Assembly (NCBI GenBank): GCA_017853605.1
Contig: JAFMJG010000003.1
Span: 1-50,758 of the forward strand
Reading direction: 5' to 3'
DNA: 50,758 bases
Source: a bacterium
GTDB lineage: Bacteria; Bdellovibrionota_C; UBA2361; OMII01
Shown here piece by piece: positions 6,199 to 34,442 of the stretch. The number at the start of each line of letters is the position of its first letter. The first letter of the stretch is position 1. The position numbers were made by a program, and so were the translations under genes. A model generated the notes under the pieces. The model did no database searches. It worked only from the letters and a program-made list of their open reading frames with translations, and was not told where the DNA came from.

Positions 6199-8298
6199 TC
6201 ACTTCTCCGTCAGGTTCCAAACCGGCGAGAAGCCGGTTTCGCCAAGCTGCTTACTAGATGCTATCCGGGCGCAATATGCCCGACTGACGGGGTCATCGGC
6301 AAATGTCGCGAAGAGCTCCCCTGCTTCCACGACGTTGCCAGCCTCAAAGAGCTGCCTCGCCCGGTCGAATTCGCCGAGGCGCGAGAGGATCGCGCCATCA
6401 AGCCGGGGATGAAGCGGCTCGAAGAGCTGCACAGGCTCCTGGCGGCCAACAACCCTCGCCTGGCCCACCGTTCGCCATGCAAGCTCGTCTCCCGCCCGCC
6501 GGCGGGTGCTTCCTGAGACGAGCACATTCGTCCCGAAGACCTTGTTGACGCCCTCGAGGCGCGATGCAAGGTTGGCGGCGTCGCCGATAACGGTGTAGTT
6601 GAAACGGGTCGATGAGCCGAAGTTTCCCACGGTCACCGGCCCGGTGTGGATCCCTATGCGCATGCGGAGCGAGACGCCAAAATCCCGCTGAAACATCTGG
6701 CCGAGCTCCCGAAGGCGAAGCTGGCACTGGATTGCCGCATTCACAGCCCGCTTCTCGTGGTCGTGCACCTGCAGGGGCGCGTTCCAAAAGGCGATAATTG
6801 CGTCCCCCTCGTACTTGTCGATCGTCCCACCGGAGGCCAGAAGGATGTCTGTCATCTCGGAAAGGAACGTGTTGAGGAACGCCACGAGCTTCGCCGGCTC
6901 CATGCGCTCAGAGATGCTCGTGAACCCGGCGATGTCGGAGAAGAAGATCGTCAGCTCCCGCCTCTCGCCCCCCAGCGCCAGGCTCGAAGGGTCCTTAACG
7001 ATCTGGTTTATCACCTCTGGAGTGACGTAGTGCTGGAACGCTGCCTTTATGAATCGGTGCTGCCGGCCCTCAACCCGGTACTGGAGCAGAAACACCAACA
7101 GGAGCAGGTAGAGGCTCGAAAGGAGCGGGGCAACGACCGGAAGCCACCACCCCTGGGCAGCAAACGCGAAGCTTGCGCCCGCCCAAGCAAGCACGGCACC
7201 CAAGATGATCGCGGCCTGGTAGCGCGTTGCCCTCAGGCTGACAAGGGCAACGAGCCCGAGAAAGAGCGCCGTGAGCGCGAGTGCCGCTGCAGGCGGCACC
7301 TCACGGTAAAAGCTCGTGTGGAGGAGGTTGTCGAGAACCGTCGCATTGAGCTCAACCCCCGGATAGTTTCCCGCCACAGGAACCGGCCGCAGGTCGAGCA
7401 GCCCCGGTGCGTTCGTGCCGACAAAAACGTACGCATCCTTAAACACTTCAAGGGGGATGTCGGGCCTCTTTCCCTCACCGAGCTTCAGCCAGCTGTTGAT
7501 GACCGCCGCTATTGAGTACGTGTCGTAGGTCGCCTCCGGGCCGAAGAACCTGACCAGGAGCTTTCCGCCCTCTCCGGCCAGCGGCGCAACCTCCTCGCCC
7601 TTCCCAGACCCGGGATGCACGAGGGCATAGAGCGCCGCAGGAAGGCTCAGGACCGGTGTCTCGCCGACTCGCGCCCCGAGAGCAGCGTGCCGGAAGATCT
7701 TGTCGGCATCAGCCTCGGCAGACACGTTGCCGAGCGCTGGGCTAGCCTCGATAAGCATCGGTATCGGCAGGGTTGCCGACGGAAAGCGGGGGGACGCAAG
7801 GGAGGCGAGGAGGCGCTCGATCTCTCCCCTTCTCCTCTCTTGCGAGGACCGGAAGAGCTCCTCTGTTGCGGGATCACCATCGACGGAGTCACGCCGGGCG
7901 GATACCGCGCTCACAACCGGCAGTGAGCTCGCCACCACGTCAGCAAACTCCTTGTCGTCTCCGACGTGGGTTGAGCTCTCAGTAAAGAGCATGTCAAACG
8001 CCACGCCCCGCGCGCCGGCCCGCGCCAGGTAGAGGAGGACGGGATTGTACAGTGATCGCGGCCACGGCCAGTAGATCTGCTCTGTGCGCGCATAGTGGTC
8101 GATTGAGCTCTGGTCGACCATGATGATCTTAATCTTTGGGTCGTGAGCCTCCGGGCGAACAAGGGCCTGCTGCCGCATGTCCCAGGTCTTGCTCTCAATG
8201 TCCGCAAGCAGCCCTGAGCTGAGCAGAAGCCACGCCAGCAGCGCGGCAGAGAGCCATATAAAAAACACCCCCCGCTGTAGCTGTCTCGCCGCGCTCAT
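6199..8298 (-). CDS. CHASE2-domain class III adenylate cyclase
   Basis: CHASE2 motifs (WPWPRS, AFDMLF, YPGVELNAT), three TM helices, catalytic FSDIAGFT, DKYEGDAI, RIGIHTG, YTVIGDAANLASRLEG. Start placed at ATG 8298 behind AAGGAG. Confidence 0.93.
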   Translation of the reverse strand: MSAARQLQRGVFFIWLSAALLAWLLLSSGLLADIESKTWDMRQQALVRPEAHDPKIKIIMVDQSSIDHYARTEQIYWPWPRSLYNPVLLYLARAGARGVAFDMLFTESSTHVGDDKEFADVVASSLPVVSAVSARRDSVDGDPATEELFRSSQERRRGEIERLLASLASPRFPSATLPIPMLIEASPALGNVSAEADADKIFRHAALGARVGETPVLSLPAALYALVHPGSGKGEEVAPLAGEGGKLLVRFFGPEATYDTYSIAAVINSWLKLGEGKRPDIPLEVFKDAYVFVGTNAPGLLDLRPVPVAGNYPGVELNATVLDNLLHTSFYREVPPAAALALTALFLGLVALVSLRATRYQAAIILGAVLAWAGASFAFAAQGWWLPVVAPLLSSLYLLLLVFLLQYRVEGRQHRFIKAAFQHYVTPEVINQIVKDPSSLALGGERRELTIFFSDIAGFTSISERMEPAKLVAFLNTFLSEMTDILLASGGTIDKYEGDAIIAFWNAPLQVHDHEKRAVNAAIQCQLRLRELGQMFQRDFGVSLRMRIGIHTGPVTVGNFGSSTRFNYTVIGDAANLASRLEGVNKVFGTNVLVSGSTRRRAGDELAWRTVGQARVVGRQEPVQLFEPLHPRLDGAILSRLGEFDRARQLFEAGNVVEAGELFATFADDPVSRAYCARIASSKQLGETGFSPVWNLTEK

Positions 8299-8404
8299 GA
8301 TCGCCATCTCCTTGGGGCGCGAGCCCCTCAGAGCAGGGCATACCACGCCTCAGCCACCCTCACCAGGAGGGTAGGAGCGCGAGCTCCTGCTATCTACCGG
8401 CGCG

Positions 8405-15852: not shown

Positions 15853-18800
15853 CTAGTCTACTGTCCAAACCTTGCCTTCACTGTTGAGGAACATCTTTTT
15901 CATCTCGTCGAGGGTGAAGGGCCGGGAGCCGAGGCGCCCTAGGACGCTTACCTGGTTGCCGGTCTCGTCAACCGCACGATCACGATCGAGGGGCTTTGAG
16001 ATCGCGAGTGCCGGTCCGGCCATCTGCTTGCGCGCGATCACGATCGGCCTGACTGGGGGAGAGAATCCGTAGAACCCAGGAACCCGGTCCGGGTCGGTAA
16101 GCTGGATGACAACGAGCCCGTTTCTTCCGTCAGCAACGTAAGCAAAGAGACTCGCGTTGGTGCTCGCTACTTTGACGTCGTGCGTGTCGTTGAGCCTGCC
16201 TCCATCCGTAAACTTCTCGTGCACGAAGGGGGATTCCGGCCTCTCAATGTCGACTATCACAAGCCCCTCGGCCCCGCCGGCGACATACGCGTACGTGCGC
16301 GCCACGTAGAGATTTCTGGCGTCAGCGAGGGGGACCGAAGCCGCCGGGACAACTCTTGGCGCTGAAGGATGGGTGATGTCGATGACGTGGAAGCCCTCTT
16401 CATCGGTCATAAAGGCGTAGCGGAACTGGATGGCGACCGCCGAAGGGCGTTTCGCCGGCCACGCTGCCTCCACCCGAGGCTCAAGAGGGTCATCGATGTT
16501 TAGGACAACCACTTTGTCCTCGGTGCCAATAAAGGCACGCGCGCCTGCGAGGGTGATACACCGGGCTCCTGTGAGAATGCCGTCCTTGTTCCAGGTCAGC
16601 TCCCGCTCCAGGAAGTTGTTGCGGGGCTCCCCATCCTGCAGGGTATCGACATTGACAACGATCAGCCCCTCCTCGCTGTCTGAGATGAATGCGTAGTGGT
16701 AGATCGGGTGCATCGGCGCCTCAAGGTTCTCAGGGAGCTGCTTCTTGAACGGCGCTACAGGCATGGTGGTGGGAAGCGCGACACCGGTCGCATTTTCGCT
16801 TGCAACGTGCGTGTCCTGCCCAAGCGGAGAGACAGGGCTGGTCACGATGCGCTCCGAAAATCCCTTGTTCGCGATGTTTGCGATGTCGTACACCCGGAAA
16901 CCGTCCGAGCCAGCCGCCGTGTAGAGGTACTCCCCGCGCATCTGTATCGAGCGCGTGCTGCCCCCGGCTCCGTGGTGGCGGTGGCTCTCCTCAAGCTCCA
17001 TCCCACGCTCCCGGTGGGCCTTGTAGTAGTCAGGGTAGGCGTAGCGGTGCAGGTAGCTTCCGATAACTGCCTGTGGCTCGTCCCACTCGGTCACCTGGAC
17101 GGCCTCAAGCCCCTCCTCGCCGGCCGCAACCCAGGCGTAGTGACCCATAAAGTTGACGAAGTTTGTTCCGAGCAGCAGGAGCTGGGCCATGATGGCGTTG
17201 TTGTCGTTCTCCTTCGACACATGGCAGTCCTTGCATTCCTTGGTCTCGCGGGTGCGGACGGTGTGCGGAAAGTGCGGCGCGAAGGCCTGCGAGCTGTGCC
17301 CGCTCCCCGAGGTCGGCGGCTGCTGGATGTAGATCTTTTGGCGATTGGTGTCGGTTGAGCTCAACATCAGGGCGCTGGATGAGCGGACCGGAACGATCTT
17401 GCCGTTCTTGGCCGGGCCATGGCGGCCGAGCTGGTACATATCGTCTCGCGCAACCTGAGGGTTGTAGGTAGCCCAGTTGCGCGTGACCTTTCCTTCGTAG
17501 TGCTTGGTACGGCTCTTCCAGTTTGCCTGAATCGGCAGGTGGCACCCGCCACAGGCCGTTGTCCACGAGCTGTGGCAGGCGAAGCACGACATGTCGCCAT
17601 TAGGGTGCGCAAGCTTCTCGTTGGCGTTGGGCTGCGCGGCCTCCCTGCTCGACGCGAACGAGTACGTGACCGCGCCATCCTCAAGCTTCTTTACCAGCTT
17701 GGCCCGGGCTGACTTGCGGTTGTAGTCGCTGCTCCCGGGGTTAATTGAGTCCACTACCTGCTTGACCCGCCACTCGAGCCCCTTGGTGACCATCGAGCGC
17801 TGCATGAGCTGGTCGCCCTTCCAGACAAAGAGCCGCTCGCCCCATGGTGTGCGCTTGAGGGAGAGATCCTCGCCCCCCTCTGGGGCCGCTGGTCCAGAGG
17901 TGCGGAGCGTTGCCCGCCTAGAGACGTCACCATGGCAGTCTTCGCACCCGATCTGGACAGCCTGTGCCACCTCTCCGTATATATTGCCGTCCCCGTGCAC
18001 ATCCTGAGCGAAGTGGCAGTCAGAGCACTGCATCCCGAAGTCCACGTGTATGTCCTGAAGGTGAACCGCCCTCTTGAACTTCTCGGGATCGTCAAACGGG
18101 ACGATCTTGCCATCCTTGTCGAGCAGATGGCCTTTGCGGTCGCGCTTGAACACCGCCCGGAAGTTCCAGCCGTGGCCGTGGTAGTCAGCAAACTGGGTCG
18201 TCTTGAGCTTCGGGTTGAGGTCGGCAACCCTCCTGAGGAAATCAATGTCAGTCCACTTGCCGCGTATCGCAGCCTCCTCGGGATTGTGGCTGATAGAGGT
18301 GAAGGCCTCCTCATCCGTTGGGTAGCGCTGCTTTTCAGGCCACATCGCCGGCGCGTCTGCCTCGTAGTCCCACATGGTGTAGCCAACGTACGTGTTGAGG
18401 AACATGTTAGGCTGGTGCATGTGGCACACCATGCACTGGCTCGTCGGGATCGCCCGAGTAAAGACGTGCTTCAGCGGGTGCCCCTCCTCGTTCTTGGGTA
18501 TCGTGGGATCAACGGAAACCGACTTTCCGTCATGCCCATACTTCGCGTACGGCCCCGAGTGGGCAGGCGCCCGGTCATTTGCGTACACCGCGTGACACGC
18601 CGTGCACCCGCTGCTTCGGTAGTCTCCGGGGTGATCGTTGGTGCCGAGGAAGCTTAAGTGGGGATCATTGAGGCGGGTCTTGTGAATGTTGAGGAGCGGC
18701 ACGGCTATGCGCGCGCCAGTGCCCGGGCCGCGATTTGAGGCCTTCACGTCCGGCTTGCCGGAGTCCTCGAGGGGGTTGGGAACGCCGATGTCGGAGAACT

Positions 18801-19590
18801 GGCTACGAATAAAGATGCCGCCCCGCTCAAAGACGCGAAAGATGTCGGCCGGCGCAAATACCTCCCAGGTGGGCAGCGGCAAGAGCTTTCCAAGCGCCCC
18901 GCGCGCCCGCATCTGCGGGGTGAGAGGGCGATGATGGTCATGCAAGATTGATGCAGGCTCGCCCTGCTGCGTGTACGCCTCGCCGAGCAGGTAGACCTTG
19001 TTCGGGAGCAGCCCATTATTGTAGGCGGCCCCGCCAAACAGCATCGCCGACGTTGTCATGAGGCTCTTCTTGACGGCAGTGGTGATCTGCGAGTGGCACC
19101 CTCCGCACGCCTGGGGCGCGGCACGAAGGTCTCCGGGGTTGATGAATCGCGCGAAGTCCAGCGACTCCTTCGTGAGCTCAGTGTACGAGCCGCGCGGATT
19201 CGCCGATGTGGGCCACCATTCGGGGTGGCGCGGCTGCACGTGGGCCACCCTCTTGGCAGCTTCGTAGGCCACGCTGCCAGCTTTGAGGCCCTCCGCCCTC
19301 GCCGTGGGATCGCCCCCATGGCATTCAGCACATCCGATGTGAACCGCGGGGTTCTCGTGCATGGTGGGGGCGTCCGTCTTTGTGTGGCAATCGAGGCACC
19401 CGGTGCTGGACGACCTCATCACCTCGGGGCTTCCCCAGGGCTGAAGCACATTCTCGTACGGGTCCTCCGCGCCCGCCTGTTGCACGACTGCGGCAAGCTG
19501 GCAAGCAAGGGCGAGCACAACGGGAGCAACCGCTGCCCTGCTCCAACTTCCTAGCCGTGATCCCTCCTGTTTCGCCATCCTGTGCACCAT
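15853..19590 (-). CDS. secreted decaheme c-type cytochrome with C-terminal LVIVD-repeat beta-propeller
   Basis: Signal peptide; ten CXXCH motifs (CLDCH, CAECH, CGGCH, CTACH, CMVCH, CSDCH, CEDCH, CFACH, CGGCH, CKDCH); repeats FRVYDI, LIVVNV, FHVIDI, LVIVDI; start overlaps the upstream stop (TAATG). Confidence 0.9.
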   Translation of the reverse strand: MVHRMAKQEGSRLGSWSRAAVAPVVLALACQLAAVVQQAGAEDPYENVLQPWGSPEVMRSSSTGCLDCHTKTDAPTMHENPAVHIGCAECHGGDPTARAEGLKAGSVAYEAAKRVAHVQPRHPEWWPTSANPRGSYTELTKESLDFARFINPGDLRAAPQACGGCHSQITTAVKKSLMTTSAMLFGGAAYNNGLLPNKVYLLGEAYTQQGEPASILHDHHRPLTPQMRARGALGKLLPLPTWEVFAPADIFRVFERGGIFIRSQFSDIGVPNPLEDSGKPDVKASNRGPGTGARIAVPLLNIHKTRLNDPHLSFLGTNDHPGDYRSSGCTACHAVYANDRAPAHSGPYAKYGHDGKSVSVDPTIPKNEEGHPLKHVFTRAIPTSQCMVCHMHQPNMFLNTYVGYTMWDYEADAPAMWPEKQRYPTDEEAFTSISHNPEEAAIRGKWTDIDFLRRVADLNPKLKTTQFADYHGHGWNFRAVFKRDRKGHLLDKDGKIVPFDDPEKFKRAVHLQDIHVDFGMQCSDCHFAQDVHGDGNIYGEVAQAVQIGCEDCHGDVSRRATLRTSGPAAPEGGEDLSLKRTPWGERLFVWKGDQLMQRSMVTKGLEWRVKQVVDSINPGSSDYNRKSARAKLVKKLEDGAVTYSFASSREAAQPNANEKLAHPNGDMSCFACHSSWTTACGGCHLPIQANWKSRTKHYEGKVTRNWATYNPQVARDDMYQLGRHGPAKNGKIVPVRSSSALMLSSTDTNRQKIYIQQPPTSGSGHSSQAFAPHFPHTVRTRETKECKDCHVSKENDNNAIMAQLLLLGTNFVNFMGHYAWVAAGEEGLEAVQVTEWDEPQAVIGSYLHRYAYPDYYKAHRERGMELEESHRHHGAGGSTRSIQMRGEYLYTAAGSDGFRVYDIANIANKGFSERIVTSPVSPLGQDTHVASENATGVALPTTMPVAPFKKQLPENLEAPMHPIYHYAFISDSEEGLIVVNVDTLQDGEPRNNFLERELTWNKDGILTGARCITLAGARAFIGTEDKVVVLNIDDPLEPRVEAAWPAKRPSAVAIQFRYAFMTDEEGFHVIDITHPSAPRVVPAASVPLADARNLYVARTYAYVAGGAEGLVIVDIERPESPFVHEKFTDGGRLNDTHDVKVASTNASLFAYVADGRNGLVVIQLTDPDRVPGFYGFSPPVRPIVIARKQMAGPALAISKPLDRDRAVDETGNQVSVLGRLGSRPFTLDEMKKMFLNSEGKVWTVD

Positions 19591-21398
19591 TAGTACTGAA
19601 GTATGAGGTTCGTAAAGGTGTCGTACAGCGTCTGGCTGCCGAAGAGGTTCTCCTGGCCGCTGCCGGGGAGGAGAACCGCAACGCCAGTGCGGATGATGAC
19701 GTTATTGTTGAGAAACGGGCGGTAGACGAAGCCGGCAGAGAGATCTACGCCGATGTCCCTCGTGATCGACCCGTCTTGGCGAAGGTCCTGAAGGACCGCC
19801 ACCTGGTCGAACTGCAGGAAGCTCGTGTTGGTGACGAGCTTGAGCTCGGGGAGCAGATCGAAGTCGACGCCCACGTTGTACACCCGTATGCCCGGGTTGA
19901 CGAAGTTGGCTTGGCCGAGCTCCTTGCCGGCCTTCAGGTCGGGCAGCAAGCTGTTCCTGTTGACGAGGTTGACTCCGCCGCCGCCCACGAAGGGGATCGC
20001 CTCGCGCTGAAAGAACCCCAGGTCTCCCCCTGCAAAGTTCGGGTTGTCAAAGATTGAGTCGAACCCGGTACCGCGGCTGTCGTAAGGATCGCTGTCACCC
20101 GATGCCCAAAAGAATGAGGCACGGAACCTGACATAGTCTAGGTCGTACGAGAGCTCCTGGGCGAACATCTGCGCGCTGATGTCGACCTGCCGGTTTGCGA
20201 TAGGGTTGTGGCTCTCCGAGCCCATCACGTAGTAGTACTGGGTCGTCGTGTTGACGCGCCCAATATGGCCGTCGCCGCCGACGCCAAAATAGGTGGAATT
20301 GAGGTTCTTAAATCGCTCATCGCCGATCGGGGCGGGGCGCACGAGGAACCCGTTCCGGTCGTACGTGTAGCCCGCGTCCCCTGCGTTGTCCCGCCGGTTG
20401 ACCACGCTAAAGAGCATCGTGTGGCCGGGGGCAATCATGTCCTGGCGGTACATGTTTGCCACAAAGACATCCTGGTGCCTGTAGTCGAAGGTCGTGTTGA
20501 TGCCGGTGTTGGTGTCCTTGTCGAGCAAGAAGAATGCCGCTGCGTTAAACTGAGTCCTGTTATTGTCATAGTTTCCGAACACTCGGACACCGGGCTCGTT
20601 GTCGTTGAACAGGAACCCCCGGAAGTCAGCGTTGAACTGCTGGATTCCGAGCCGTGTCGAGACAAAGTCATAGCGCTCTGAGAGGTTTGCCAGGTGAATG
20701 TCAGCAAAGAGCTCCTGGAAGCCAAACGCCTGGGCGGTTCGGGTGTCGCCGAAGGCAGGATCCGCCTTGAGAAGGCCGTCCTCTTGCGCGTACAGCCGGT
20801 TGACCTGGAAGATCGGCGCAATTCGCAGCTCAAAGTCTGGCGGCTTGAAGGCTGTGTCGCCCTTTATGAGGCTGAAGGATGCGATGACGTTCTCGGCAAA
20901 GAAGTTCTGGTCCCCGTCGCCAAAAACGTTGTTGCTGTTGGGCCTCTTGGTGCTCGCCTGGCCCACCGGCACCGGTATGCGCCGCGCCTCGAAGAGGGTG
21001 TCCGAGATAACCGAGACCTCCGTAAACCATTCCTCTCCAGGCTTCCCAAAGGCTGGTATGTCGGCCTTGAGCGCGTTTTGGTTGTAGGGATCATAGTACT
21101 TGCCCGCGTAAAACATGCGCCAGCGATCCGGCACGGCGATGAACTCTGTGGCAGAATCATGAACGGGCTGGATCGACTCATAGATCGTGTCTGGAAACGG
21201 TGCCGGCTCGCTGTCGGGCATGCGGCGTGGCGCCTCGCTGGTCACCGACAGGCCGCCAAGAGATCCCGCTTCCTCCTGGGCGAGCGCCGGCCGCACAGAG
21301 GCCCCAAGAGCGAGCACGAGCACGGCACCCAGCAGTGCGTCGGCCGACGCCCGGCGGGAAGCCCCCTCGCCCGACTGTCTCGGAGCCCGCTGCCCCAT
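19590..21398 (-). CDS. large outer-membrane beta-barrel (porin-like) protein
   Basis: Signal peptide ending ALA|Q; aromatic/Gly/Asn-rich amphipathic strands; terminal NLILQY beta-signal. Confidence 0.78.
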   Translation of the reverse strand: MGQRAPRQSGEGASRRASADALLGAVLVLALGASVRPALAQEEAGSLGGLSVTSEAPRRMPDSEPAPFPDTIYESIQPVHDSATEFIAVPDRWRMFYAGKYYDPYNQNALKADIPAFGKPGEEWFTEVSVISDTLFEARRIPVPVGQASTKRPNSNNVFGDGDQNFFAENVIASFSLIKGDTAFKPPDFELRIAPIFQVNRLYAQEDGLLKADPAFGDTRTAQAFGFQELFADIHLANLSERYDFVSTRLGIQQFNADFRGFLFNDNEPGVRVFGNYDNNRTQFNAAAFFLLDKDTNTGINTTFDYRHQDVFVANMYRQDMIAPGHTMLFSVVNRRDNAGDAGYTYDRNGFLVRPAPIGDERFKNLNSTYFGVGGDGHIGRVNTTTQYYYVMGSESHNPIANRQVDISAQMFAQELSYDLDYVRFRASFFWASGDSDPYDSRGTGFDSIFDNPNFAGGDLGFFQREAIPFVGGGGVNLVNRNSLLPDLKAGKELGQANFVNPGIRVYNVGVDFDLLPELKLVTNTSFLQFDQVAVLQDLRQDGSITRDIGVDLSAGFVYRPFLNNNVIIRTGVAVLLPGSGQENLFGSQTLYDTFTNLILQY

Positions 21399-21403
21399 CT
21401 CCG

Positions 21404-23284
21404 CTACCCTTCCGTGCAGACACCCTGTTCATTGCTGCCACTGAAGGGGGCTTCAGGACAGTTGACGTAGCGAAGCCGCGAATTGCGCTGAGGAACGATC
21501 TGGTCCGCCCGTATCTCAAGCGGCGCGTTGAAGCCAAGGTAGGGATCACCGACGGTGGTGTACCCAACGTAGTCGAGCCCCCGGCGGCTCGCGCCATAGA
21601 AGGCCACCATGTCATCCTGGTCCACGCCGTCTCCGCTGACGCCGATCGCCCCAATCAGCACCCCGCCCCGGTACAGCGGCACGGCGCCGGGGAAGATCTG
21701 AATGCCGTTCCTCAAGCGGCCCCCAAAAACCGCGCTCGTGCACGAGCTGGGCACGGTGCCGGGCTGCAGTATCGGACCAACGAGACTGCCAAACACGAGG
21801 TCGAGCTGCAGGCCGGTATTGAAGACCGACCAGCTCGGGCCTGCCGCTGTCCCGGGGAACGGCAGCGAGAAGGGGCCGTTGGCGGTGCCGTTGATTCCAT
21901 CCGGGAAGAAGGGCCGTGAAACGTTTCCCACCGAGCGGTTGGCGAATGCGTGGCTGCCATCGAGCGAGACACCCGTGAACGCCGCGAAGCTCGCTGCGTA
22001 GTTCGGCGAAACGCCGGCAGCAAGCAGGGTGCCGGCGCTCGCGGAGCTCATGAAAGCCGCCGTGCGCGCCTTCTGGAGCGAAACGTCCACGCCAAACACG
22101 GGGGCATCCTGGGAGCGGATAAAGCCCAGCGGGTTTCCGCTCTCATCAACCACAAAGATCGACACCCGCGCAGAGGTGTCGAGCGGCTGACGTATCGCGG
22201 CCCGGGCGCGGTAGGCGGTGGTGAGCGCCGAGTCGAGCAGGGCGTTCACATCGCTGGCAGAGAGCTGGGCTCCGCCAGGCAGGGGCCTGCCCCCGATGGT
22301 TGGGAACCTCCCAACCAGCACAGCCGCAGGAATTCCCGCCTTCTCTGTTGCGACGATGCCGGAAGGGGCTGTGCCAAACGTGGTGCCGGCCCTGATCTGG
22401 CCATTGGTGTACGAGGGCTGTGACTTGAAGCCTGCCGGGTCGAGGGGCTCAAGCTCCGCAGGCGCCACGATCTCGTTGTACGTCGTGTCTGAGTAGCGCA
22501 GAGACCGGCCCGCCAGCGAGATGCTGTTGCCCGTCCGTTGCGCAGGCGCCTCAAACCCGAGGCTCGCCGTCATGGCCACAACTTCCTCAGGCGACTCCTG
22601 GTAGTCCTGCAGGTTTGGATCGATGGTGTAAAGCCCGTCGAACTCTGCGCTGACACCGCCAACCACGTCTCCCTGCTTGTAGAGCGGGAATCCCCCTGGA
22701 TCGGCCGAAAGCCCAAGCGGCAACGGCCTAGGCCCCACAGGGCCGTTTGCCCTGGTGATGTCGCTGCATATCAGCTGCGAAAACTGAACCCCAAAGAGCG
22801 GCCCGCCCGGCTGGTCGTTCTGGCCGGGAAGGTAGTTCTGCTGGATAATCTGCCCCGCCGTCCGGGAGGAGAATGCGTTTCCCTGCGAGCTTAGGTAGGC
22901 TCCGGTTCCAGCTTTTGAAATCGCGGCAAGCGTCGAGGGAACTGCTATCCCTTCAAGCCCGCCGCTGGCTCCCGTCTGCCCATTAATGGTCGTTGTCTGG
23001 GGCGCTCCGCTCATCTGGTACAGGGCGAGAACATTGCCGGTCCGGTCAGTGATGGCGAACGTCGCTGCCGTCCCCATCCCCTTTGCCGCTGCGACCCCCT
23101 GCTGCAAAATAGTGGTCACCTCCTCAACCGACAGGGACTGGTTAGCGCAGCTGCCATCACAATTAAAGTTGGCAGCGGGGTCCCCGCCGCTCGTCTCGCC
23201 CGCACTTCCGCTGCCGCCCCCGCAGCCGAGCAGCGCCGTCATGAGGGCAGTGGCAGAGATCATCGTCAGTTTCTTGTGGGCCAT
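21404..23284 (-). CDS. lipoprotein with two HbpS/GlcG-like heme-binding domains
   Basis: Lipobox LLGC; two copies of the family signature (AISKAGTG...GGFPLYKQGDVVGGVS and SLQKARTA...GAVPLYRGGVLIGAIGVSG). Confidence 0.82.
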   Translation of the reverse strand: MAHKKLTMISATALMTALLGCGGGSGSAGETSGGDPAANFNCDGSCANQSLSVEEVTTILQQGVAAAKGMGTAATFAITDRTGNVLALYQMSGAPQTTTINGQTGASGGLEGIAVPSTLAAISKAGTGAYLSSQGNAFSSRTAGQIIQQNYLPGQNDQPGGPLFGVQFSQLICSDITRANGPVGPRPLPLGLSADPGGFPLYKQGDVVGGVSAEFDGLYTIDPNLQDYQESPEEVVAMTASLGFEAPAQRTGNSISLAGRSLRYSDTTYNEIVAPAELEPLDPAGFKSQPSYTNGQIRAGTTFGTAPSGIVATEKAGIPAAVLVGRFPTIGGRPLPGGAQLSASDVNALLDSALTTAYRARAAIRQPLDTSARVSIFVVDESGNPLGFIRSQDAPVFGVDVSLQKARTAAFMSSASAGTLLAAGVSPNYAASFAAFTGVSLDGSHAFANRSVGNVSRPFFPDGINGTANGPFSLPFPGTAAGPSWSVFNTGLQLDLVFGSLVGPILQPGTVPSSCTSAVFGGRLRNGIQIFPGAVPLYRGGVLIGAIGVSGDGVDQDDMVAFYGASRRGLDYVGYTTVGDPYLGFNAPLEIRADQIVPQRNSRLRYVNCPEAPFSGSNEQGVCTEG

Positions 23285-23296
23285 GTGCGGTGATTC

Positions 23297-24970
23297 CTAG
23301 CGAGTTAGGCTTTTAAGGTACGAGGCGATATCTTCCTTTCTTTCGCCCGGAAAACCAAGCGAATCGTGGTACGAGTGGCACTCTGTGCAGTCCGAACGCA
23401 CAAAGCCTTCAGTATCCTCGCTGCGGTGGCACTCCTGGCACAGCTGCTTGCGGGGCAGAAGAAGATCTTTTGTCTCTGACGAGCCACGGGCTTTTTCGTG
23501 GCACGACTCGCAGGTGAACTTCTCGTGCGCGCCGTGGCTGAAGTGCGCCTGCGGAAACCACACCGAAGGGATGTTGGGCTCAGCGACAGAGTAATGGGCA
23601 TTCGACACAGTCTGCTCGCTACTTGGCTTTTCGGCTATTGAGTGGCAGAGAAAGCACGCTGTTTTCGTGAAGAGCTGCTTTTCAGCATCTCGGGCGCTGC
23701 CCAGCACCGCAGCGATGCTCTGTGGCACCGGAGCCTCCTCCGCGCCAGGAACGGAGCCAGGCATGTCTCGCGTGGAGTCATGCGCAGGGTTCGGCACCGA
23801 CTCATCTTCCTTAAGCAGCACAACCTTTGAGTATGCGGCAAAGAGCGACTCGAACACAGATTCAGCGTCCCCGTGCGGAACCTCTTCGTACGGAAGTCGC
23901 TCGTCGAAGCCCAGCGAGTGGCAGTCGCGGCAATGCTTGTCAAAGCGTATCGGCTCCAGCTGCCTGAAGTCGGGGCCAAGCCTGTGGCACGCGCCGCATT
24001 CAAGGGTGACAGGCCCCTCTTTGCCCCTCAGGCCGCGCTTGAGGTGAAGCTTATGGTTAAGCTTGATGCGGGACGAGTCGACCGCGCGCTCTTGGTCATC
24101 GAGGCTAACGCGGGACACCGTCCCTTGGGGGCCAGGGACTGAAATTTTGAACTGCGGGTGCAGGTCAAACGACGGCACGTTCTCTGCCGTGGCTCCAGGC
24201 TGCAGAGACGCCATCCTCGCGTGGCACGAGGAGCACTGCCGCGAGTCGTGAGTGATGACCCCTGAGTCCCCGTTGTGCTCCATGTGGCATTGGGCGCAGC
24301 GCGCCTGGAGCGCCGGATGCCGCGCATTGAAATCCCCGATGCCCTTGGCGTGCTCAGTCATGTGGTGGCAGGTGAGGCACTGGGCGTCCTGCACCGGCTG
24401 GAAGGGCTTGGCGTGGCATTGTCCGCAGTCCTCCTCGATGAGCTGGTGCGCCCTCGAGACCGGCCCTGTGCTCCACGCATCTTTTTCGCCAGAGCCAATC
24501 GGCAGGGCGAGGAACACCAGCGAGACCAAGACGGCAGCTGCCAGCGAGAGCATCCTCATCGGCGGCACGTGGGACTCAATCCCGAGCGCCGCGAGGCCCC
24601 TTGCCGCGAGATCCTGATCCTGCGCCGGCTGGGCGAGCCCCTCGACCAGCGTAAGCTCCGCCTCCTGCCCCTGCAGCCGCACGCGAGCCTCAATATCGCC
24701 CAGGGACACCACGTCGCCGTCGGCAAGCGCAGCTCGAGCAACACGCCGCCCATTGACCCGGATTCCCGCAAGGCTCCCTAGGTCAAGCACGGCGAGTGCG
24801 CCCCCTTCCCAGGCGAACCGCGCATGCTCTATTCCGATGCGCTGGCCAACGAGGATGACGTCGGACTCGCCGCCCCTGCCCAAGACTATTTCTTGTTGCT
24901 CAACCCGGGTCTCGCTGCGCTCGACTGAGCCGTTGCTCCCGTGCCTCTCGTGGATGATTCGGAACGCCAT
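23297..24970 (-). CDS. FHA domain, TM helix and decaheme cytochrome c3-like fusion
   Basis: N-terminal IVLGR...EHA...DLGS..GIRVNG (FHA), one TM helix, then ten CXXCH motifs. Confidence 0.88.
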   Translation of the reverse strand: MAFRIIHERHGSNGSVERSETRVEQQEIVLGRGGESDVILVGQRIGIEHARFAWEGGALAVLDLGSLAGIRVNGRRVARAALADGDVVSLGDIEARVRLQGQEAELTLVEGLAQPAQDQDLAARGLAALGIESHVPPMRMLSLAAAVLVSLVFLALPIGSGEKDAWSTGPVSRAHQLIEEDCGQCHAKPFQPVQDAQCLTCHHMTEHAKGIGDFNARHPALQARCAQCHMEHNGDSGVITHDSRQCSSCHARMASLQPGATAENVPSFDLHPQFKISVPGPQGTVSRVSLDDQERAVDSSRIKLNHKLHLKRGLRGKEGPVTLECGACHRLGPDFRQLEPIRFDKHCRDCHSLGFDERLPYEEVPHGDAESVFESLFAAYSKVVLLKEDESVPNPAHDSTRDMPGSVPGAEEAPVPQSIAAVLGSARDAEKQLFTKTACFLCHSIAEKPSSEQTVSNAHYSVAEPNIPSVWFPQAHFSHGAHEKFTCESCHEKARGSSETKDLLLPRKQLCQECHRSEDTEGFVRSDCTECHSYHDSLGFPGERKEDIASYLKSLTR

Positions 24971-24973
24971 ATC

Positions 24974-25789
24974 CTACCGGTAGAAGAGCACGACAACGAT
25001 GTGGATAGCGAGCGCAACACACAGCGCGCACGAGAGGGGGATGTGGGTGTAGAGCCAGAGCTTAAGCAGCGCCTTGATCCGCGCCTGCTCCAGGAGCGAC
25101 CGAATCAGGTCAAGCCGCTGGTCGAGCAGCCCAATCATTGCTATGGCATCACGCTGCTCCGCATCGGAGATAACTGAAAGCATCACTGCTGCCGCTTTTT
25201 GGTTCACCGACGGGTGCCGCTCCTTGACGATAATTGACCAGAGTGAGAGGTCGAGCGGCACATCAAAGGCGTTGTAGACCTGGAGGAAGGCTTCGCTCTT
25301 TCCCGCGCAGAGTGCCTCTGCCTGCTTGCCAAGCTCCCCTATTCGCTCAAGCATTGTCGCGTCCGTTGCCCCTCCCCGGTGCGCCGTGATCTTGCCCGAC
25401 AGCCGCGAGTAATTCACTGCCCCCCAGATGCCGGTGGCGATGGTGCCTACCATCAGGACGTAGGCGGTTGTGTGGACATCAAGCCCGAAGCTAAATCCTG
25501 AGTGGAGGGGCACGAGCAGAATGAGCCCGATACCGATCCAGACGTGGGCAGCAAGCCAGCCTTCGACGGTTCCCAGCGAGGATCTGTAGGCCCGCTTGCG
25601 GGCCGCATACGCCATGAGCAGACCGATGCCGAGAGCGGCGATCGTGCCAAAGGCGTACCCAAGCGCCGTGCCGCCATTGTTGCCGCCCACGGGGCTATTG
25701 AGGGCATACATCGTGGTGCACACAAGCAGCCCAACCGCAGTGATCCACAGCCACCTAAACCGCTTGTAGGAAATGAACGTCTCCTGCAT
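24974..25789 (-). CDS. integral membrane protein, putative di-heme b (ferric-reductase/NOX-like) module
   Basis: About 5 TM helices; H-VWIGIGLILLVPL-H and H-IPLSCALCVALAI-H (both H-X13-H); start ATG 25789 with GAGGGG RBS. Confidence 0.75.
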   Translation of the reverse strand: MQETFISYKRFRWLWITAVGLLVCTTMYALNSPVGGNNGGTALGYAFGTIAALGIGLLMAYAARKRAYRSSLGTVEGWLAAHVWIGIGLILLVPLHSGFSFGLDVHTTAYVLMVGTIATGIWGAVNYSRLSGKITAHRGGATDATMLERIGELGKQAEALCAGKSEAFLQVYNAFDVPLDLSLWSIIVKERHPSVNQKAAAVMLSVISDAEQRDAIAMIGLLDQRLDLIRSLLEQARIKALLKLWLYTHIPLSCALCVALAIHIVVVLFYR

Positions 25790-25797
25790 CTCGCCCC

Positions 25798-28140
25798 TCA
25801 AATCCTCTTTAGGCCGGCTATCTCCACCAGCTTGCTCGAGTGCACTCGCATGGCGGCGCCCGTTGGGCATGCCCGCACGCACGCCGGGCCGCCTGGCAAG
25901 CTGGCGCACATGTCGCACTTTGCCGCTTTTGCTGGCCCCTTCTCCTTCTTCGCCAGGCCCAAAAGTGCCCGGAGCGAGAAGCCGTCACTGGCCTTGTCGT
26001 ACACGATCTTGATTACGCCGTAGGGGCAGTTAGTGACGCAGTTCCCGCAGCCGATGCACGAGTCGCGGATGATCACCTCGCCACTTGGAGTGCGGGTGAG
26101 CGCATCCGGAGGGCAGTCGGTCATGCACAGGGGATTCTCGCAGTGGCGGCACGAGATCGGAACCTGAATCGAGGCGAAGCTCTTGCCCCCCTTCCGATCG
26201 AGGCGAGAGTACCCGTTGTGGGTCGCGGCGCACGCAGCCTCGCAGTTGTCGCACGAGACGCAGAGGTCTGAGTTGATGAGAAGCACGTTCTCGGCATCCG
26301 AGAGCCCCTGCTGCATCATGAAGTCGAGGAGCGAGCCTGCTTCCTCGCTCCAGTCCGCCATCGCATTCTGCACCCGACGGCGGTCCACCTCGCGATGGAT
26401 GGATGCGCGCGTGTCCGGGAACTCCCGCAGCAGCTGGATCACGTCGTCCTTTTTTAGGGCGATCAGGTCGCATGCAACAGCAGCCGTGCATGTTGCCGAC
26501 CTCGGGGTGGGCTCCTCACTGACTACGGCCATCTCGCCGATGTAGCTGCCGGCCGGGACATAGGTGCGCGCGATGTCCTTGCCGGACGGCGCGAGCCGCG
26601 ACACCTTGACTGAGCCCTTGCGGATAACGTACGCCGCATCTCCGAGATCCCCCTCCCTGAAGATGACCTCCCCCTTCTTGAAGCTCTTCATCTCGGCACG
26701 CTTCACGAGCGCCTGGAGGAATGGCTCTGGCGTGTCCGGGAACACGGCGGTCTGGAGGGCGCGAAACATGAAGAGCTCATCGAGGGCGCGCTTGACCGAT
26801 CCAACTGAGGCGATCAGCTTGAGGACCTGCTTGCGGGGCGTCTCAAGCAGGAGCGTTCCGGGCGCAGCCACGCGAACCGTTGCCACACGGCGCCTTCCAG
26901 AGAGGAGGCCCATCTCGCCGAAGAACTGCCCCTGCCCGAGCTTGATTGTGCGCCCTAGCCCTATCTCTATCTCGACCGCGCCTGACACAACGCTGAAGAA
27001 CGTGTCGGTGTAGTCGTTCCTCTCAAAGACAACTGCCCCAGGCTCCTTAAGGTGCAGCGTCGAGTCGATCAGCATTTCACGAAGCTGGGGCGCGCTGAGA
27101 TCCTTAAAGAGCGGAAGGTTTGCCGATATTTTCGGGAAGTTTTCGGCAAACCCTCCTGGCAGGCCCACGAACCGCTCCTCAAGAAGCGGCTGGTCGGCAG
27201 GCTGCACCGGCTCGCCGCGAATGTGCTCGATAACCTCGTAGCCCTGGTTCATGGCCTGCTTAATAAGCGGATAGCCGATCAAGGCGCCGAGCACATAGAG
27301 GCCTGGAACGCTCGACTCGTACCGGTGGCTCACGGACGGCACAGCATTGGGATCAGGGCTTGGGAAGGTGATGCCCGCTGTCTCAAGAAACTTGCGCGGC
27401 AGGACGCAGCCGAGGCGGGCGATGATGTGGTCACACGGCACCGTGACCTCGCCATCGGGGGTGTTGATATGGGCGGACTGGGGCTCGATTCGCGCCACCG
27501 TCGCGCCATAGAAGCACCGTATCTTGCCGCCCTCAATTGCCCCCAGGATCAGCTTCGAGTTGGCGTCCTTCGCGCGCGCAAACTCAGTTCCGCGGTTCAC
27601 GAGCGAGACCGTGTTTTTTTCGGCGAGCGCCAGCGCGTTCTCAATAGCGGCGTCTCCGGCGCCAACCACGATGATGTGCTTGCCGCTGAAGGCGCCCGGA
27701 TCTGAGAGCGTGTACGCCACGTTGCCCTGCTCCTCGCCTGGCACCCCGAGCTTGCGCGGGGCACCCTGCACGCCAATCGCCAGAATGACGTGCTTGGCAG
27801 TGCAGGTTCCCCCCTGGTACCCGACCTCAAACGTTTCGCCCTTTTTCTCAATCCGAAGAACCTCTGCCCTCCTGAGGTTGGCCTTCAGCCTTCCCAAGTC
27901 CTCCTGGTACTCCTGCAGGATCTTTTCCCGGCTCCCAGCCTCAAAGCGGCAGTGGGCCCGGAGGGGAAGCCGCCCAGGCTCCGCCATGACATGCTTGCGC
28001 AGCTGGTAGTCATAAATCGTGTTGGCGATCTCGCCCTTCTCGAAAAGGACGTGGGGGAGGCCGTGGTGCGCTGCGCTTGCGGCGGCAGCGAGCCCGGCTG
28101 GGCCGGCTCCGATAATCGCAATCTCAAAATGCTCGGACAT
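25798..28140 (-). CDS. FAD/NAD(P)H oxidoreductase, 2x cyclic-nucleotide-binding, 4x[4Fe-4S] fusion protein
   Basis: GAGPAG and VVGAGDAA Rossmann motifs; cNMP cassettes FFGEMGLLSGRRRVAT and YIGEMAVVSEEPTPRSAT; CVSCDNCEAAC, CRHCENPLCMTDCP, CIGCGNCVTNCP, CDMC..GGPACVRACP. Start may be 28140 or 28173. Confidence 0.92.
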   Translation of the reverse strand: MSEHFEIAIIGAGPAGLAAAASAAHHGLPHVLFEKGEIANTIYDYQLRKHVMAEPGRLPLRAHCRFEAGSREKILQEYQEDLGRLKANLRRAEVLRIEKKGETFEVGYQGGTCTAKHVILAIGVQGAPRKLGVPGEEQGNVAYTLSDPGAFSGKHIIVVGAGDAAIENALALAEKNTVSLVNRGTEFARAKDANSKLILGAIEGGKIRCFYGATVARIEPQSAHINTPDGEVTVPCDHIIARLGCVLPRKFLETAGITFPSPDPNAVPSVSHRYESSVPGLYVLGALIGYPLIKQAMNQGYEVIEHIRGEPVQPADQPLLEERFVGLPGGFAENFPKISANLPLFKDLSAPQLREMLIDSTLHLKEPGAVVFERNDYTDTFFSVVSGAVEIEIGLGRTIKLGQGQFFGEMGLLSGRRRVATVRVAAPGTLLLETPRKQVLKLIASVGSVKRALDELFMFRALQTAVFPDTPEPFLQALVKRAEMKSFKKGEVIFREGDLGDAAYVIRKGSVKVSRLAPSGKDIARTYVPAGSYIGEMAVVSEEPTPRSATCTAAVACDLIALKKDDVIQLLREFPDTRASIHREVDRRRVQNAMADWSEEAGSLLDFMMQQGLSDAENVLLINSDLCVSCDNCEAACAATHNGYSRLDRKGGKSFASIQVPISCRHCENPLCMTDCPPDALTRTPSGEVIIRDSCIGCGNCVTNCPYGVIKIVYDKASDGFSLRALLGLAKKEKGPAKAAKCDMCASLPGGPACVRACPTGAAMRVHSSKLVEIAGLKRI

Positions 28141-28322
28141 GCAGCCTGCCAGCCCCCAGCCGGAATTCTCCATCGGCCGTAATCAGCCGCCAGGAGAGGC
28201 ACAAATATACGTGTGACCGATGATGCGAGGCAATTCAATACGCGAGCTGCAGCATCAATTTGGCGGGCGCCAGACTGCGCAGCGCGCAGCTCCGCAGGCA
28301 CTGGCGGGGGGCTGCGTGAATG

Positions 28323-28352: not shown

Positions 28353-28406
28353 ACCTCCGGAAGCCGTTACCGCGCTTGAACACAAGGGTGAAGAGAGGGG
28401 GCTTTT

Positions 28407-29684
28407 ATAGAACGCTTTTTTATCCGACTGATCGCCGTCGTTGCCTGCGTCTTTCCCGCCGCTGCTGAGGGATCGCCCGACACGTACGTGGGCACAGGCT
28501 CCTGCTCGTCATCTACCTGCCACGGCAGCGTGCGCGCCCTGCGGGGATCAAACGTCCTGCAAAACGAGTACTACACCTGGCTGAAGCACGACAAGCACTC
28601 AGGGGCCTTCACGGTGCTCCTCAAGCCTGACGCCCGCCGAATGGCATCGCTGCTTAACCTCGGGGATCCTTCACGCGAGCCCCTCTGTTTACAGTGCCAC
28701 GCCACCTACGTTCCAGACGCCGAGCTGCGCGGCGAGAAGTTTGACATTGAGGACGGGGTCTCGTGCGAGTCGTGCCATGGGGCTGCGGGGCGGTGGCTTG
28801 AGTCGCACGCCGTTGCTGGCGCCACGCATGCGGAGAATCGTGCCCGGGGCCTAACTGACACGGTGTCGCTGACAAGCCGCGCGGCGCTTTGCCTGTCGTG
28901 CCACTACGGGGACGGCGACAAGCGGGTAACGCACGACCTCTACGGAGCCGGACACCCTCGCCTCAGCTTTGAGCTCGACACCTTTGGCGTCATGGAGCCC
29001 AAGCACTGGGTCATAGATGACGATTACCTCAAGCGAAAGGGCCCGTACGTCCCCGTGGCCGCATGGATCATCGGCCAGCAGGCGCTGGCGGAGGGGATCG
29101 TTCGCACCCTCAGCTCGCCTGAGCTTTCGCGCAACGGCATGTTCCCGGAGCTCTCGGTTTTTGACTGCTACTCGTGCCACCACAGCCTCTCTGAGGAGCA
29201 GTGGAAGCGCCGCACCTACGGCGGAAAGCCCGGCCGGCTCGCAGTCAACATAGCTCCGCTCCTCATGATCAGGGAGGCGCTCGTGGCGCTGAACCAGCCG
29301 GATGCGCCGGAGTTTGCAGCCCTCGTATCGACGCTTCATGACTCATACCAGTCTGACGGGGCCCCTCAGGCGCTCGCGCGACTGCAGGCCCTCCTGGCGG
29401 GCAGCGTGGGCGATTTCGCTAGGCGCATGCCGGGAGATGAGGCAGCGTCCCTAGCGATCATGCGGCAGTTGGCTTCCTTCGGCGCACAGGCAGAAGCGCT
29501 AAAGTACGAAGCTGCAGAGCAGATCGGAATGGGCATCCAGGCTGCGATGGCCACCTCGCCCCGCCTTTCAGCGAAGTTTAAGGCTCCGCTAGACAGGCTC
29601 TTTGTCACGCTTGAGAGCGCGCGGAGCTTCAGCCCCGCGAAATTTAAGGAGGCCGCGTCACAGCTCGCCCTTAAGCTTTCCTGA
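28407..29684 (+). CDS. multiheme cytochrome c554-like protein
   Basis: YVGTGSCSSSTCH (CX4CH) plus CLQCH, CESCH, CLSCH, CYSCH; GVSCESCHG motif. An in-frame signal peptide lies upstream of GTG 28488; exact start uncertain. Confidence 0.85.
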   Translation: MERFFIRLIAVVACVFPAAAEGSPDTYVGTGSCSSSTCHGSVRALRGSNVLQNEYYTWLKHDKHSGAFTVLLKPDARRMASLLNLGDPSREPLCLQCHATYVPDAELRGEKFDIEDGVSCESCHGAAGRWLESHAVAGATHAENRARGLTDTVSLTSRAALCLSCHYGDGDKRVTHDLYGAGHPRLSFELDTFGVMEPKHWVIDDDYLKRKGPYVPVAAWIIGQQALAEGIVRTLSSPELSRNGMFPELSVFDCYSCHHSLSEEQWKRRTYGGKPGRLAVNIAPLLMIREALVALNQPDAPEFAALVSTLHDSYQSDGAPQALARLQALLAGSVGDFARRMPGDEAASLAIMRQLASFGAQAEALKYEAAEQIGMGIQAAMATSPRLSAKFKAPLDRLFVTLESARSFSPAKFKEAASQLALKLS

Positions 29685-34160: not shown

Positions 34161-34442
34161 GATGTGCGCTCCTTGCCCTCGGGCCTGCTCCACTAATGCC
34201 CTGTTCGCCTAGCCCTCTCGAGGCAGCTTCCCCTAAGTACCCTGAAAACCACGCTCTCGGAAGCTCCGTACCCGACCGTGTTTACCCCCTTTACCTCTCT
34301 CGATAGAATGCCGAAATACCATGAGTACTGGGGCCGCTTTAGCGGCTGCCAGGCAGGTCGGGAGATGGGGTGATGGCGCTCGCTACGTTGTTGCGGTGCG
34401 GAGCCATACAAATAGGCGACGCTGCGCCGCAAGCGCCATCGG

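Follow-up and report, generated by a model that had tools for sequence, protein, structure and literature searches.

A stretch of 50,758 nucleotides, positions 1 to 50,758 of contig JAFMJG010000003.1 (assembly GCA_017853605.1) from a member of the Bdellovibrionota, was analysed at its full length and is called the window below. The analysis concerned a minus-strand gene for a flavo-iron-sulfur protein, hereafter the flavoprotein, and the multihaem cytochrome genes that accompany it. The protein combines a domain related to thioredoxin reductase (TrxR), predicted to bind flavin adenine dinucleotide (FAD) and reduced nicotinamide adenine dinucleotide (phosphate) (NAD(P)H), with two cyclic nucleotide-binding (CNB) domains and an iron-sulfur (Fe-S) module. 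An earlier inspection of the DNA without database searches (the sequence-only reading) had placed these parts in the order FAD, CNB-A, CNB-B, Fe-S, and the same order was found by Pfam and by structure alignments at the following positions:

25798..28140, minus strand: flavoprotein gene, an open frame of 780 amino acids (Pfam, NCBIfam).
27226..28140, minus strand: predicted FAD/NAD(P)H two-dinucleotide-binding domain, residues 1-305, TrxR/YpdA-like (Pyr_redox_3; alignments to 7a76, 2zbw, 7jyp and 7a7b).
26755..27105, minus strand: CNB-A, residues ~346-462, with the cassette FFGEMGLLSGRRRVATV; aligned to CNB-A of PfPKG (5ezr).
26371..26754, minus strand: CNB-B, residues ~463-590, with the cassette GEMAVVSEEPTPRSAT; best Pfam stretch 485-573, aligned to PKA (5j3u).
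25831..26283, minus strand: four-cluster ferredoxin module, residues 620-770, HycB/HydN-like (Fer4_11 and Fer4_7 above cut-off).

An alternative in-frame ATG lies upstream at 28173 and would extend the product by 11 residues, to 791 amino acids. Neither a signal peptide nor a transmembrane (TM) helix or hydrophobic segment was found in the flavoprotein by sequence scan. Since the protein carries no export signal and uses cytoplasmic ligands, it should act at the inner face of the membrane. The sequencing runs listed with positions 24974-28140 of the window were DNA runs from water metagenomes, with no RNA run among them.

Sequence constraint was evaluated on an alignment of 76 sequences, namely the window protein and 75 full-length homologues taken from 80 genomic loci. 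The homologues were 47-77% identical overall to the window protein, and the median identity by domain was 54% for the flavin domain, 51% for CNB-A, 39% for CNB-B and 59% for the Fe-S module. CNB-A is thus constrained about as tightly as the catalytic domains. Residue counts given below for the flavoprotein refer to this alignment.

The flavin domain was recognized by Pfam as Pyr_redox_3 at residues 9-285 (E 3e-35). Its closest solved structures were YpdA/Bdr (7a76, 7a7b) and 2zbw from Thermus thermophilus, which was deposited as a thioredoxin reductase and which we take to be a TrxR-type ferredoxin-NADP+ reductase. The Rossmann motifs GxGxxG, for FAD, and GxGxxA, for NAD(P)H, were present, and the second strand is followed by a basic motif; G11, G13, P14, G16, G160, A161, G162, D163, N182, R183 and R189 were each kept in at least 98% of the sequences. 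The sequence-only reading had described TrxR-like FAD and NAD(P) motifs that lack a redox-active CXXC, and the alignment agreed with it, as TLS-D occupies the Cys-pair position of the TrxR 7jyp. Where YpdA/Bdr has its one Cys (GGGPCG), the window protein, as aligned with 7a76 and 7a7b, has Ala (GAGPAG). None of the Cys in the flavin domain is invariant; the best kept are C209, in 92% of the sequences, and C236, in 74%. The best N-terminal match in NCBIfam was YpdA/Bdr (TIGR04018, E 1.6e-44), yet it reached 152 bits against a cut-off of 339.9, and thioredoxin-disulfide reductase (TIGR01292) reached 76 bits against 343. A disulfide reductase of the YpdA or TrxR kind was considered and ruled out: both the YpdA Cys and the TrxR CxxC are missing, and absence of the catalytic Cys excludes disulfide reduction. 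The Arg of VNRG, previously read as a hint at NADPH, proved to be part of a near-invariant NADPH-type motif, N182-R183-x-x-E186-F187-x-R189-x-K191, in which N182, F187, R189 and K191 are kept in 76/76 sequences and R183 and E186 in 75/76. Judging from this motif, NADPH is probably the reductant of the FAD.

The tandem of CNB domains matched the cNMP_binding family (PF00027; cNMP, cyclic nucleoside monophosphate) in two stretches, with E 2e-36 and 124.2 bits against a gathering cut-off of 27.5. Two intact phosphate-binding cassettes had been claimed for it, and both were recovered as FGE...R[ST/V]AT in alignment with PKA and PKG. F406, F407, G408, E409, G415, R416, R417 and R418 of CNB-A, and likewise G535, E536 and R547 of CNB-B, are each kept in at least 98% of the sequences. 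By alignment with the PKA/PKG cassettes, the pairs E409/R418 and E536/R547 are the putative contacts of the cyclic phosphate.

In the ferredoxin module, the 16 Cys reported earlier in a DmsB/NrfC-like pattern were located in four motifs (C627/630/633/637, C664/667/672/676, C695/698/701/705 and C742/745/754/758), and every one of them is kept in 76/76 sequences. Fer4 dicluster families span residues 660-762, with Fer4_11 (PF13247) at 40.5 bits against a cut-off of 26.2 in Pfam. The NCBIfam matches of this part were HydN, the AegA N-terminal part, DsrO and FdnH/HybA-like proteins, and the match in PDB was HycB3/4 (7qv7). The Tat signal or TM anchor that is typical of the periplasmic proteins DmsB, NrfC and FdnH was not found in the window protein; as judged from its sequence, the Fe-S module is cytoplasmic, like HycB and HydN.

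The sequence-only reading had treated the flavoprotein as a protein standing alone. It is instead the cytoplasmic head of a conserved multihaem operon in a widespread family. Five genes follow on the same strand with gaps of a few bases, the first two gaps being 8 nt and 3 nt. Gene order was surveyed in the 80 flavoprotein loci, which come from Bdellovibrionota, Alpha-, Beta- and Gammaproteobacteria and Myxococcales; many loci end ahead of the distal genes, which bears on the counts given for each gene:

24974..25789, minus strand: 271-residue inner-membrane protein with five TM helices (5-TM), a putative dihaem-b transmembrane conduit; downstream in 73/80 loci.
23297..24970, minus strand: 557-residue FHA-anchored decahaem cytochrome c (FHA E 4e-11; 10 CXXCH); in 69/80 loci.
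21404..23284, minus strand: 626-residue lipoprotein with an LLGC lipobox and HbpS-like/GlcG repeats (PF03928 in three stretches, E 1e-20); in 64/80 loci.
19590..21398, minus strand: 602-residue secreted protein, free of Cys and ending in ...NLILQY, a candidate outer-membrane barrel; in 61/80 loci.
15853..19590, minus strand: 1245-residue secreted decahaem cytochrome with LVIVD beta-propeller repeats (10 CXXCH; LVIVD E 1e-19); in 59/80 loci.

Among 48 sequences of the membrane protein, the His pairs H82/H96 and H249/H263 (two HX13H pairs) are invariant, and W78 and W245 are kept in at least 90%, which gives WX3HX13H motifs and agrees with what He et al. (PMC5566968) describe for the inner-membrane protein of PCC3/PCC4. 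R64-K65-R66, in a predicted cytoplasmic loop, are also invariant, and by the positive-inside rule one His pair would lie near each membrane face. Weak, sub-threshold matches to the cytochrome-b561 family PF01292 were obtained for 45/48 members. The ferric-reductase family PF01794, although the HX13H pairs are present, was above cut-off in 0/48 and weak in 4/48, with a best E of 0.11; the name 'ferric reductase like' carried by the Atlas cluster of this protein is an automatic label. A complex prediction of the ferredoxin module with the 271-residue protein gave a median score of 0.37, against 0.24 for the control.

The 557-residue protein consists of a cytoplasmic FHA domain, a single TM helix at residues ~140-158 and a periplasmic decahaem part. 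Its N-terminus (residues 1-100) was FHA- or YscD-like at E 0.01 or better in 33/36 homologues, 26/36 being above the FHA cut-off, and the FHA domain may provide another regulatory input or the place where the flavoprotein docks. The 602-residue protein has a signal-like N-terminus and an aromatic C-terminal residue, and no match to it was found in Pfam or PDB. Sequence searches of PDB with the LVIVD cytochrome and with the membrane-protein profile returned nothing usable. A different order, on one strand, was observed in three metagenome-assembled genomes (MAGs) of Betaproteobacteria (L020, L021 and L070): HbpS-like protein, 602-residue protein, LVIVD decahaem, tetrahaem and flavoprotein. In L020, type II secretion genes lie downstream of the flavoprotein.

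A candidate source of the second messenger is encoded in the window itself, its link to the flavoprotein being our suggestion:

6199..8346, minus strand: CHASE2 class III nucleotidyl cyclase (CHASE2 E 1e-44; Guanylate_cyc E 3e-22).

In this cyclase the purine-specifying position is occupied by Lys (KYEGD) and the second position by Thr, a combination that we take, by the usual rule for these residues, to point to an adenylate cyclase. Class III cyclases above the Pfam cut-off were found in 50/50 genomes behind 50 of the 80 loci, against 4/14 in a control set. A phylum sample was also assembled from 110 genomes of the window's phylum that are at least 80% complete. A cyclase was present in 66/66 flavoprotein-positive genomes of this sample versus 19/44 negative ones, and within the window's genus in 26/26 positives (27 with the window's own genome) versus 3/6 negatives; these genomes are kin, so that the counts overstate independence and describe an association without amounting to a test. 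A cyclase lies within 20 kb on the contig of the flavoprotein in at least 17 of the 66 positive genomes, and within 10 kb upstream in at least nine, the contigs being short. With about three cyclases per 3.3 Mb, linkage within 20 kb would be expected by chance in ~4%, or about 2-3 of 66.

In the Gammaproteobacteria, a class III cyclase was located within 8 kb upstream on the same strand in 10/80 loci, or in 9/48 when counting is restricted to loci whose upstream DNA spans 6 kb or more. Eight gammaproteobacterial loci show, on one strand, a CHASE2 cyclase, a TPR/Slam-like protein, a FecR-like protein and the flavoprotein, and at one of the loci (L007) the junction of the FecR-like and flavoprotein genes overlaps. 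In eight Bdellovibrionota neighbourhoods, which had been selected for a nearby cyclase, all eight cyclases were homologous to the CHASE2 cyclase of the window, and the three that were tested (3/3) contained CHASE2 and a cyclase domain. Three proteins of 1091-1212 residues that adjoin such cyclases (L086, L087, L091) were identified as FecR-TPR fusions, two of them with a barrel resembling TonB-dependent receptors. The linkage of the cyclase gives messenger control independent genomic support.

A recurring sensor set was seen with the operon, made up of a CHASE2 cyclase, a TPR/Slam-like barrel and a FecR domain (L007, 2837-8007; L038, 3389-7983). Woeseiaceae and Steroidobacteraceae encode its parts as separate genes; in Bdellovibrionota the parts are fused. 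The genome of the window holds two further pairs of a FecR-TPR-barrel protein and a CHASE2 protein, on contigs C104 (1472-6628) and C192 (24215-29707). The CHASE2 protein of C104 is a cyclase; that of C192 is without a cyclase match.

On the other side of the flavoprotein gene, a divergent cytochrome gene was found:

28407..29684, plus strand: c554-like cytochrome with four CXXCH and one CX4CH (PF13435 E 7e-12; haem motifs).

A homologue of this tetrahaem protein flanks the flavoprotein in 21/80 loci. Its signal peptide, ERFFIRLIAVVACVFPAAA/EG, lies upstream of the first canonical start, GTG 28488 (window 28392-28490, plus strand), and no ATG, GTG or TTG was found ahead of it. An ATA at 28407 sits 6 nt past the Shine-Dalgarno run GAGAGGGGG, and the signal peptide is included only with this start. 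A non-canonical ATA start is therefore the likely one for the c554-like cytochrome. The open reading frame of 438 residues that adjoins the cluster (29690-31006, minus strand) had no Pfam match and no homologue among the 80 loci. Beside it lies a multi-TM protein of 993 residues with a spermidine-synthase-like domain (31212-34193, minus strand), which was found at full length and high identity only in the closest relative, L003, with a weak partial match in L067. A flagellin gene (Flagellin_N/C) is located at 36261-37082 on the plus strand.

By protein search, the flavoprotein has more than 7000 near-full-length relatives. The best 120 of them are 733-814 residues long, have an identical Pfam set and are 61-100% identical to it. 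In a genome collection the flavoprotein was present in at least 585 species. The nearest relatives among the matches listed belong to Bdellovibrionota MAGs (69-77%), and further hosts include Woeseiaceae, Steroidobacteraceae, Lysobacterales, several Alpha- and Betaproteobacteria and one Myxococcales MAG. The hosts are mostly freshwater and marine lineages resembling aerobic heterotrophs, and cultured ones include Oceanibacterium hippocampi, Zavarzinia sp. and Fontimonas thermophila. In the phylum sample, 66/110 genomes carry the flavoprotein, and in the window's own genus 26/32. One near-complete relative, in three contigs, has two full-length copies (G059:C1:1914910-1917243 and 2519775-2522087). 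Within this very widespread and uncharacterised family, which the literature has mentioned only incidentally, the window gene is an unexceptional case.

Many matches of 300-700 residues without the flavin domain were also obtained, mostly on short contigs or named 'partial'. Five such entries were inspected, four on contigs longer than 190 kb and one on an 83-kb contig. All five begin within, or just past the C-terminal end of, the flavin domain, three of them in its last conserved motif, GALIGYPLIKQAMNQGYEV. A natural family consisting of CNB and Fe-S parts only was accordingly rejected, and the short entries were attributed to truncated gene calls.

Two published gene clusters resemble that of the window. 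PCC4 has been described as a porin, periplasmic 4-, 5- and 10-haem cytochromes and a 5-TM protein of the inner membrane, in which two WX3HX13H motifs occur and a likeness to ferric-reductase domains was noted; in subgroup II of PCC4 an Fe-S (pfam13247) gene lies upstream of the gene for this membrane protein (He et al. 2017, PMC5566968). Its function is called unknown in the accessible text of that paper, and that of the ptdABCDEFG operon 'remains completely unknown' according to the accessible part of a preprint (bioRxiv 10.1101/2023.11.21.568154). As far as these descriptions go, the window resembles PCC4 subgroup II and ptdD-E-F-G in the order tetrahaem, cNMP-binding Fe-S protein, 5-TM protein and decahaem. 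It shares with them the Fe-S (PF13247) gene directly upstream of the 5-TM WX3HX13H protein, here with an 8-nt gap, and periplasmic cytochromes with 4 (plus one CX4CH) and 10 haem motifs. Unlike PCC4/ptd as described, the window cluster is without a pentahaem cytochrome and without a counterpart of the flavohaemoprotein-like PtdC, and it has the HbpS-like lipoprotein, the 602-residue secreted protein and the 1245-residue LVIVD decahaem in place of PCC4/ptd genes. A separate pentahaem gene beside the tetrahaem gene was seen in 0/80 loci, and the sole open reading frame with five CXXCH (L031) occupies the tetrahaem position. No porin was recognised in the window cluster either, though the 602-residue protein may be a barrel. 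In the accessible text of the two papers neither a TrxR-like flavin domain nor four clusters are mentioned, the ptd preprint giving 'two 4Fe-4S'. From the published description, as far as it is available, we infer that the flavoprotein is the same as PtdE. Judged by gene content and order, the window cluster is a variant of PCC4/ptd. The Tenderiales 'uet' cluster, whose preprint mentions an LVIVD protein, was also compared and was set aside as a different system on the part of the text that is accessible.

For the membrane step, the closest working analogies are NOX/FRE and Fre-MsrQ; for the transfer from clusters to haem b it is FdnH-FdnI, and for the sensor the PKA regulatory subunit and PKG. 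In NOX/FRE and Fre-MsrQ-MsrP, cytoplasmic NAD(P)H and flavin deliver electrons to two stacked b-haems in a quinone-free transfer across the membrane, and the ligands of these haems are His pairs with a spacing of 13 residues, located on two TM helices. The HX13H pairs of the window membrane protein resemble this arrangement. Unlike in NOX/FRE, the dehydrogenase of the window is a separate protein of TrxR fold with a four-cluster wire and two CNB domains, and the proposed acceptor is a multihaem c chain instead of the O2, Fe-chelates or MsrP of NOX/FRE/MsrQ. The 16-Cys four-cluster ferredoxin beside a putative dihaem cytochrome b of the PF01292 kind is shared with FdnH-FdnI, HybA, HycB and HydN; in contrast to FdnH-type proteins, the window module is predicted to be cytoplasmic, is fused to flavin and CNB domains, and comes without a catalytic molybdo- or NiFe subunit.

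The sensor part can be aligned with the PKA regulatory subunit and PKG in one continuous alignment over both CNB domains (3of1, 4z07, 7lv3), and its cassettes are canonical, FGE...R(S/T/A)A. It differs from them in that its output is not a kinase and in that the CNB tandem sits between two redox modules. No characterised precedent for redox modules flanking an inserted CNB tandem was found in the literature searched. With TrxR-type ferredoxin-NADP+ reductase and YpdA/Bdr, the flavin domain shares the two-dinucleotide-binding fold, the absence of CxxC and the HRR-like NADPH motif. Unlike in TrxR-type ferredoxin-NADP+ reductase, the ferredoxin is fused in cis behind two sensor domains.

On this domain content and gene order, and with moderate confidence, the flavoprotein is proposed to be the cytoplasmic input subunit of an electron export chain gated by cyclic AMP (cAMP), which would lead from NAD(P)H through FAD, four [4Fe-4S] clusters and a dihaem cytochrome b to a decahaem cytochrome. 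NAD(P)H, probably NADPH, would reduce the FAD of the TrxR-like domain, and the electrons would run along the four clusters to the neighbouring 5-TM protein. In that protein, two b-haems between the HX13H pairs would take the electrons across the membrane. The membrane-anchored decahaem would accept them on the periplasmic side and pass them to other secreted haem proteins of the operon. The ligand of the CNB tandem would be a cyclic nucleotide, most likely cAMP supplied by a CHASE2 adenylate cyclase, and binding would alter the geometry or the docking of the protein and so turn the chain on or off. Gating would be needed because an ungated, quinone-independent outward leak would waste reducing power and membrane potential. 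The domain anatomy, the conservation of residues, the gene linkage and the co-occurrence of the cyclase are observations; we infer the cofactor content, the direction of flow, the physical docking, the identity of the ligand and the gated step. The earlier proposal, that cNMP binding controls the transfer from FAD to Fe-S, thus stands in its broader part: control of electron flow by cNMP is the best-supported reading, in view of the cassette constraint and of the co-occurrence and linkage of the cyclase. A more tentative extension is that the fusion of FecR, TPR and an outer-membrane barrel and the CHASE2 adenylate cyclase may sense an envelope signal, cAMP then opening or closing a NOX-like quinone-independent wire.

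Several observations weigh against this proposal. CNB-B is the least conserved domain, although its ligand-contact residues are kept, and relative to PKA its cassette loop has two extra residues. The cyclase of the window lies 18.8 kb from the flavoprotein gene, a FecR partner was looked for beside it and not found, and cyclases also occur in the 19 of 44 flavoprotein-negative genomes mentioned above, where kinship tempers the comparison. The membrane protein reaches no Pfam threshold. In L020, L021 and L070 the cluster ends with the flavoprotein gene, and neither the membrane protein nor the FHA-decahaem was found within the DNA examined, though they may sit farther upstream. The literature search yielded two comparative-genomics mentions and no experiment on any member of the family.

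Among the other explanations, an exchange with the quinone pool deserves attention, although we regard it as unlikely. The membrane protein would then belong with the quinol- or quinone-active cytochromes b, such as FdnI/HyaC and the b-domain of Geobacter CbcL, and the flavoprotein would serve either as a redox valve or as an accessory NAD(P)H:quinone input, without being the sole donor of the decahaem. Four-cluster modules of the FdnH/HybA kind dock on such cytochromes b, 45/48 membrane-protein homologues weakly match PF01292, the family of hydrogenase and formate-dehydrogenase cytochromes b, and a quinone-active inner-membrane protein of PCC3/PCC4 was proposed in the accessible text of He et al. 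(PMC5566968). All the PF01292 matches are, however, below the curated cut-off, no quinone-site residues were identified in the protein, and a quinol oxidase would have no need to be paired so strictly (73/80 loci) with an NAD(P)H flavoprotein in the cytoplasm. An inward flow seems less probable still. A donor outside the cell or in the periplasm, for example Fe(II) or Mn(II), would supply the electrons, and the flavoprotein would be their cytoplasmic sink, reducing NAD(P)+. Ferredoxin-NADP+ reductases of the TrxR type work in both directions, and PCC4 occurs in Fe(II) oxidisers, for which an inward model is drawn in the accessible part of the same paper (PMC5566968). Against this, the reduction of NAD(P)+ from donors at the Fe(II) level is uphill and opposed by the membrane potential, the domain content suggests no encoded energy-coupling module, and the hosts are mostly of the aerobic heterotroph-like freshwater and marine kind.

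The gating itself can also be questioned. The CNB domains might be a fixed scaffold, a dimerisation unit or a sensor of another ligand, with the flow being constitutive or controlled otherwise, for instance through FHA. Bacterial CNB folds of the CooA, NtcA and CprK type bind other ligands, and such a role would suit the low conservation of CNB-B, the FHA part kept in 33/36 decahaem homologues as an alternative regulatory route, and the lack of a cyclase adjacent to the operon in the window. We nevertheless doubt it, to the same degree as quinone exchange: the predicted phosphate-contact Gly-Glu and Arg, aligned with PKA/PKG, are kept in at least 98% of the 76 sequences in both domains, and the co-occurrence and linkage of the cyclase favour cNMP. 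A stand-alone soluble NADPH-dependent reductase, acting on a disulfide or a small molecule and having cytochrome neighbours by chance, was already disfavoured and can hardly be maintained. The YpdA/Bdr match (E 1.6e-44) speaks for it, but with 152 bits it is far from the cut-off of 339.9, the Bdr Cys and the TrxR CxxC are absent, the flavin domain is without an invariant Cys, and the gene order is conserved across phyla.

The proposed cAMP-gated export chain is directly testable, since the flavoprotein is soluble, cofactor-rich and present in cultured strains. If the proposal is true, this would be the first case in which a second messenger acts allosterically on an electron-transfer chain and not on transcription, a kinase or a channel. 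Common aerobic bacteria of freshwater, sea and soil, in at least 585 species, would then own a regulated route from NAD(P)H to multihaem cytochromes that bypasses the quinone pool, and extracellular or periplasmic electron transfer would extend further than is known at present.

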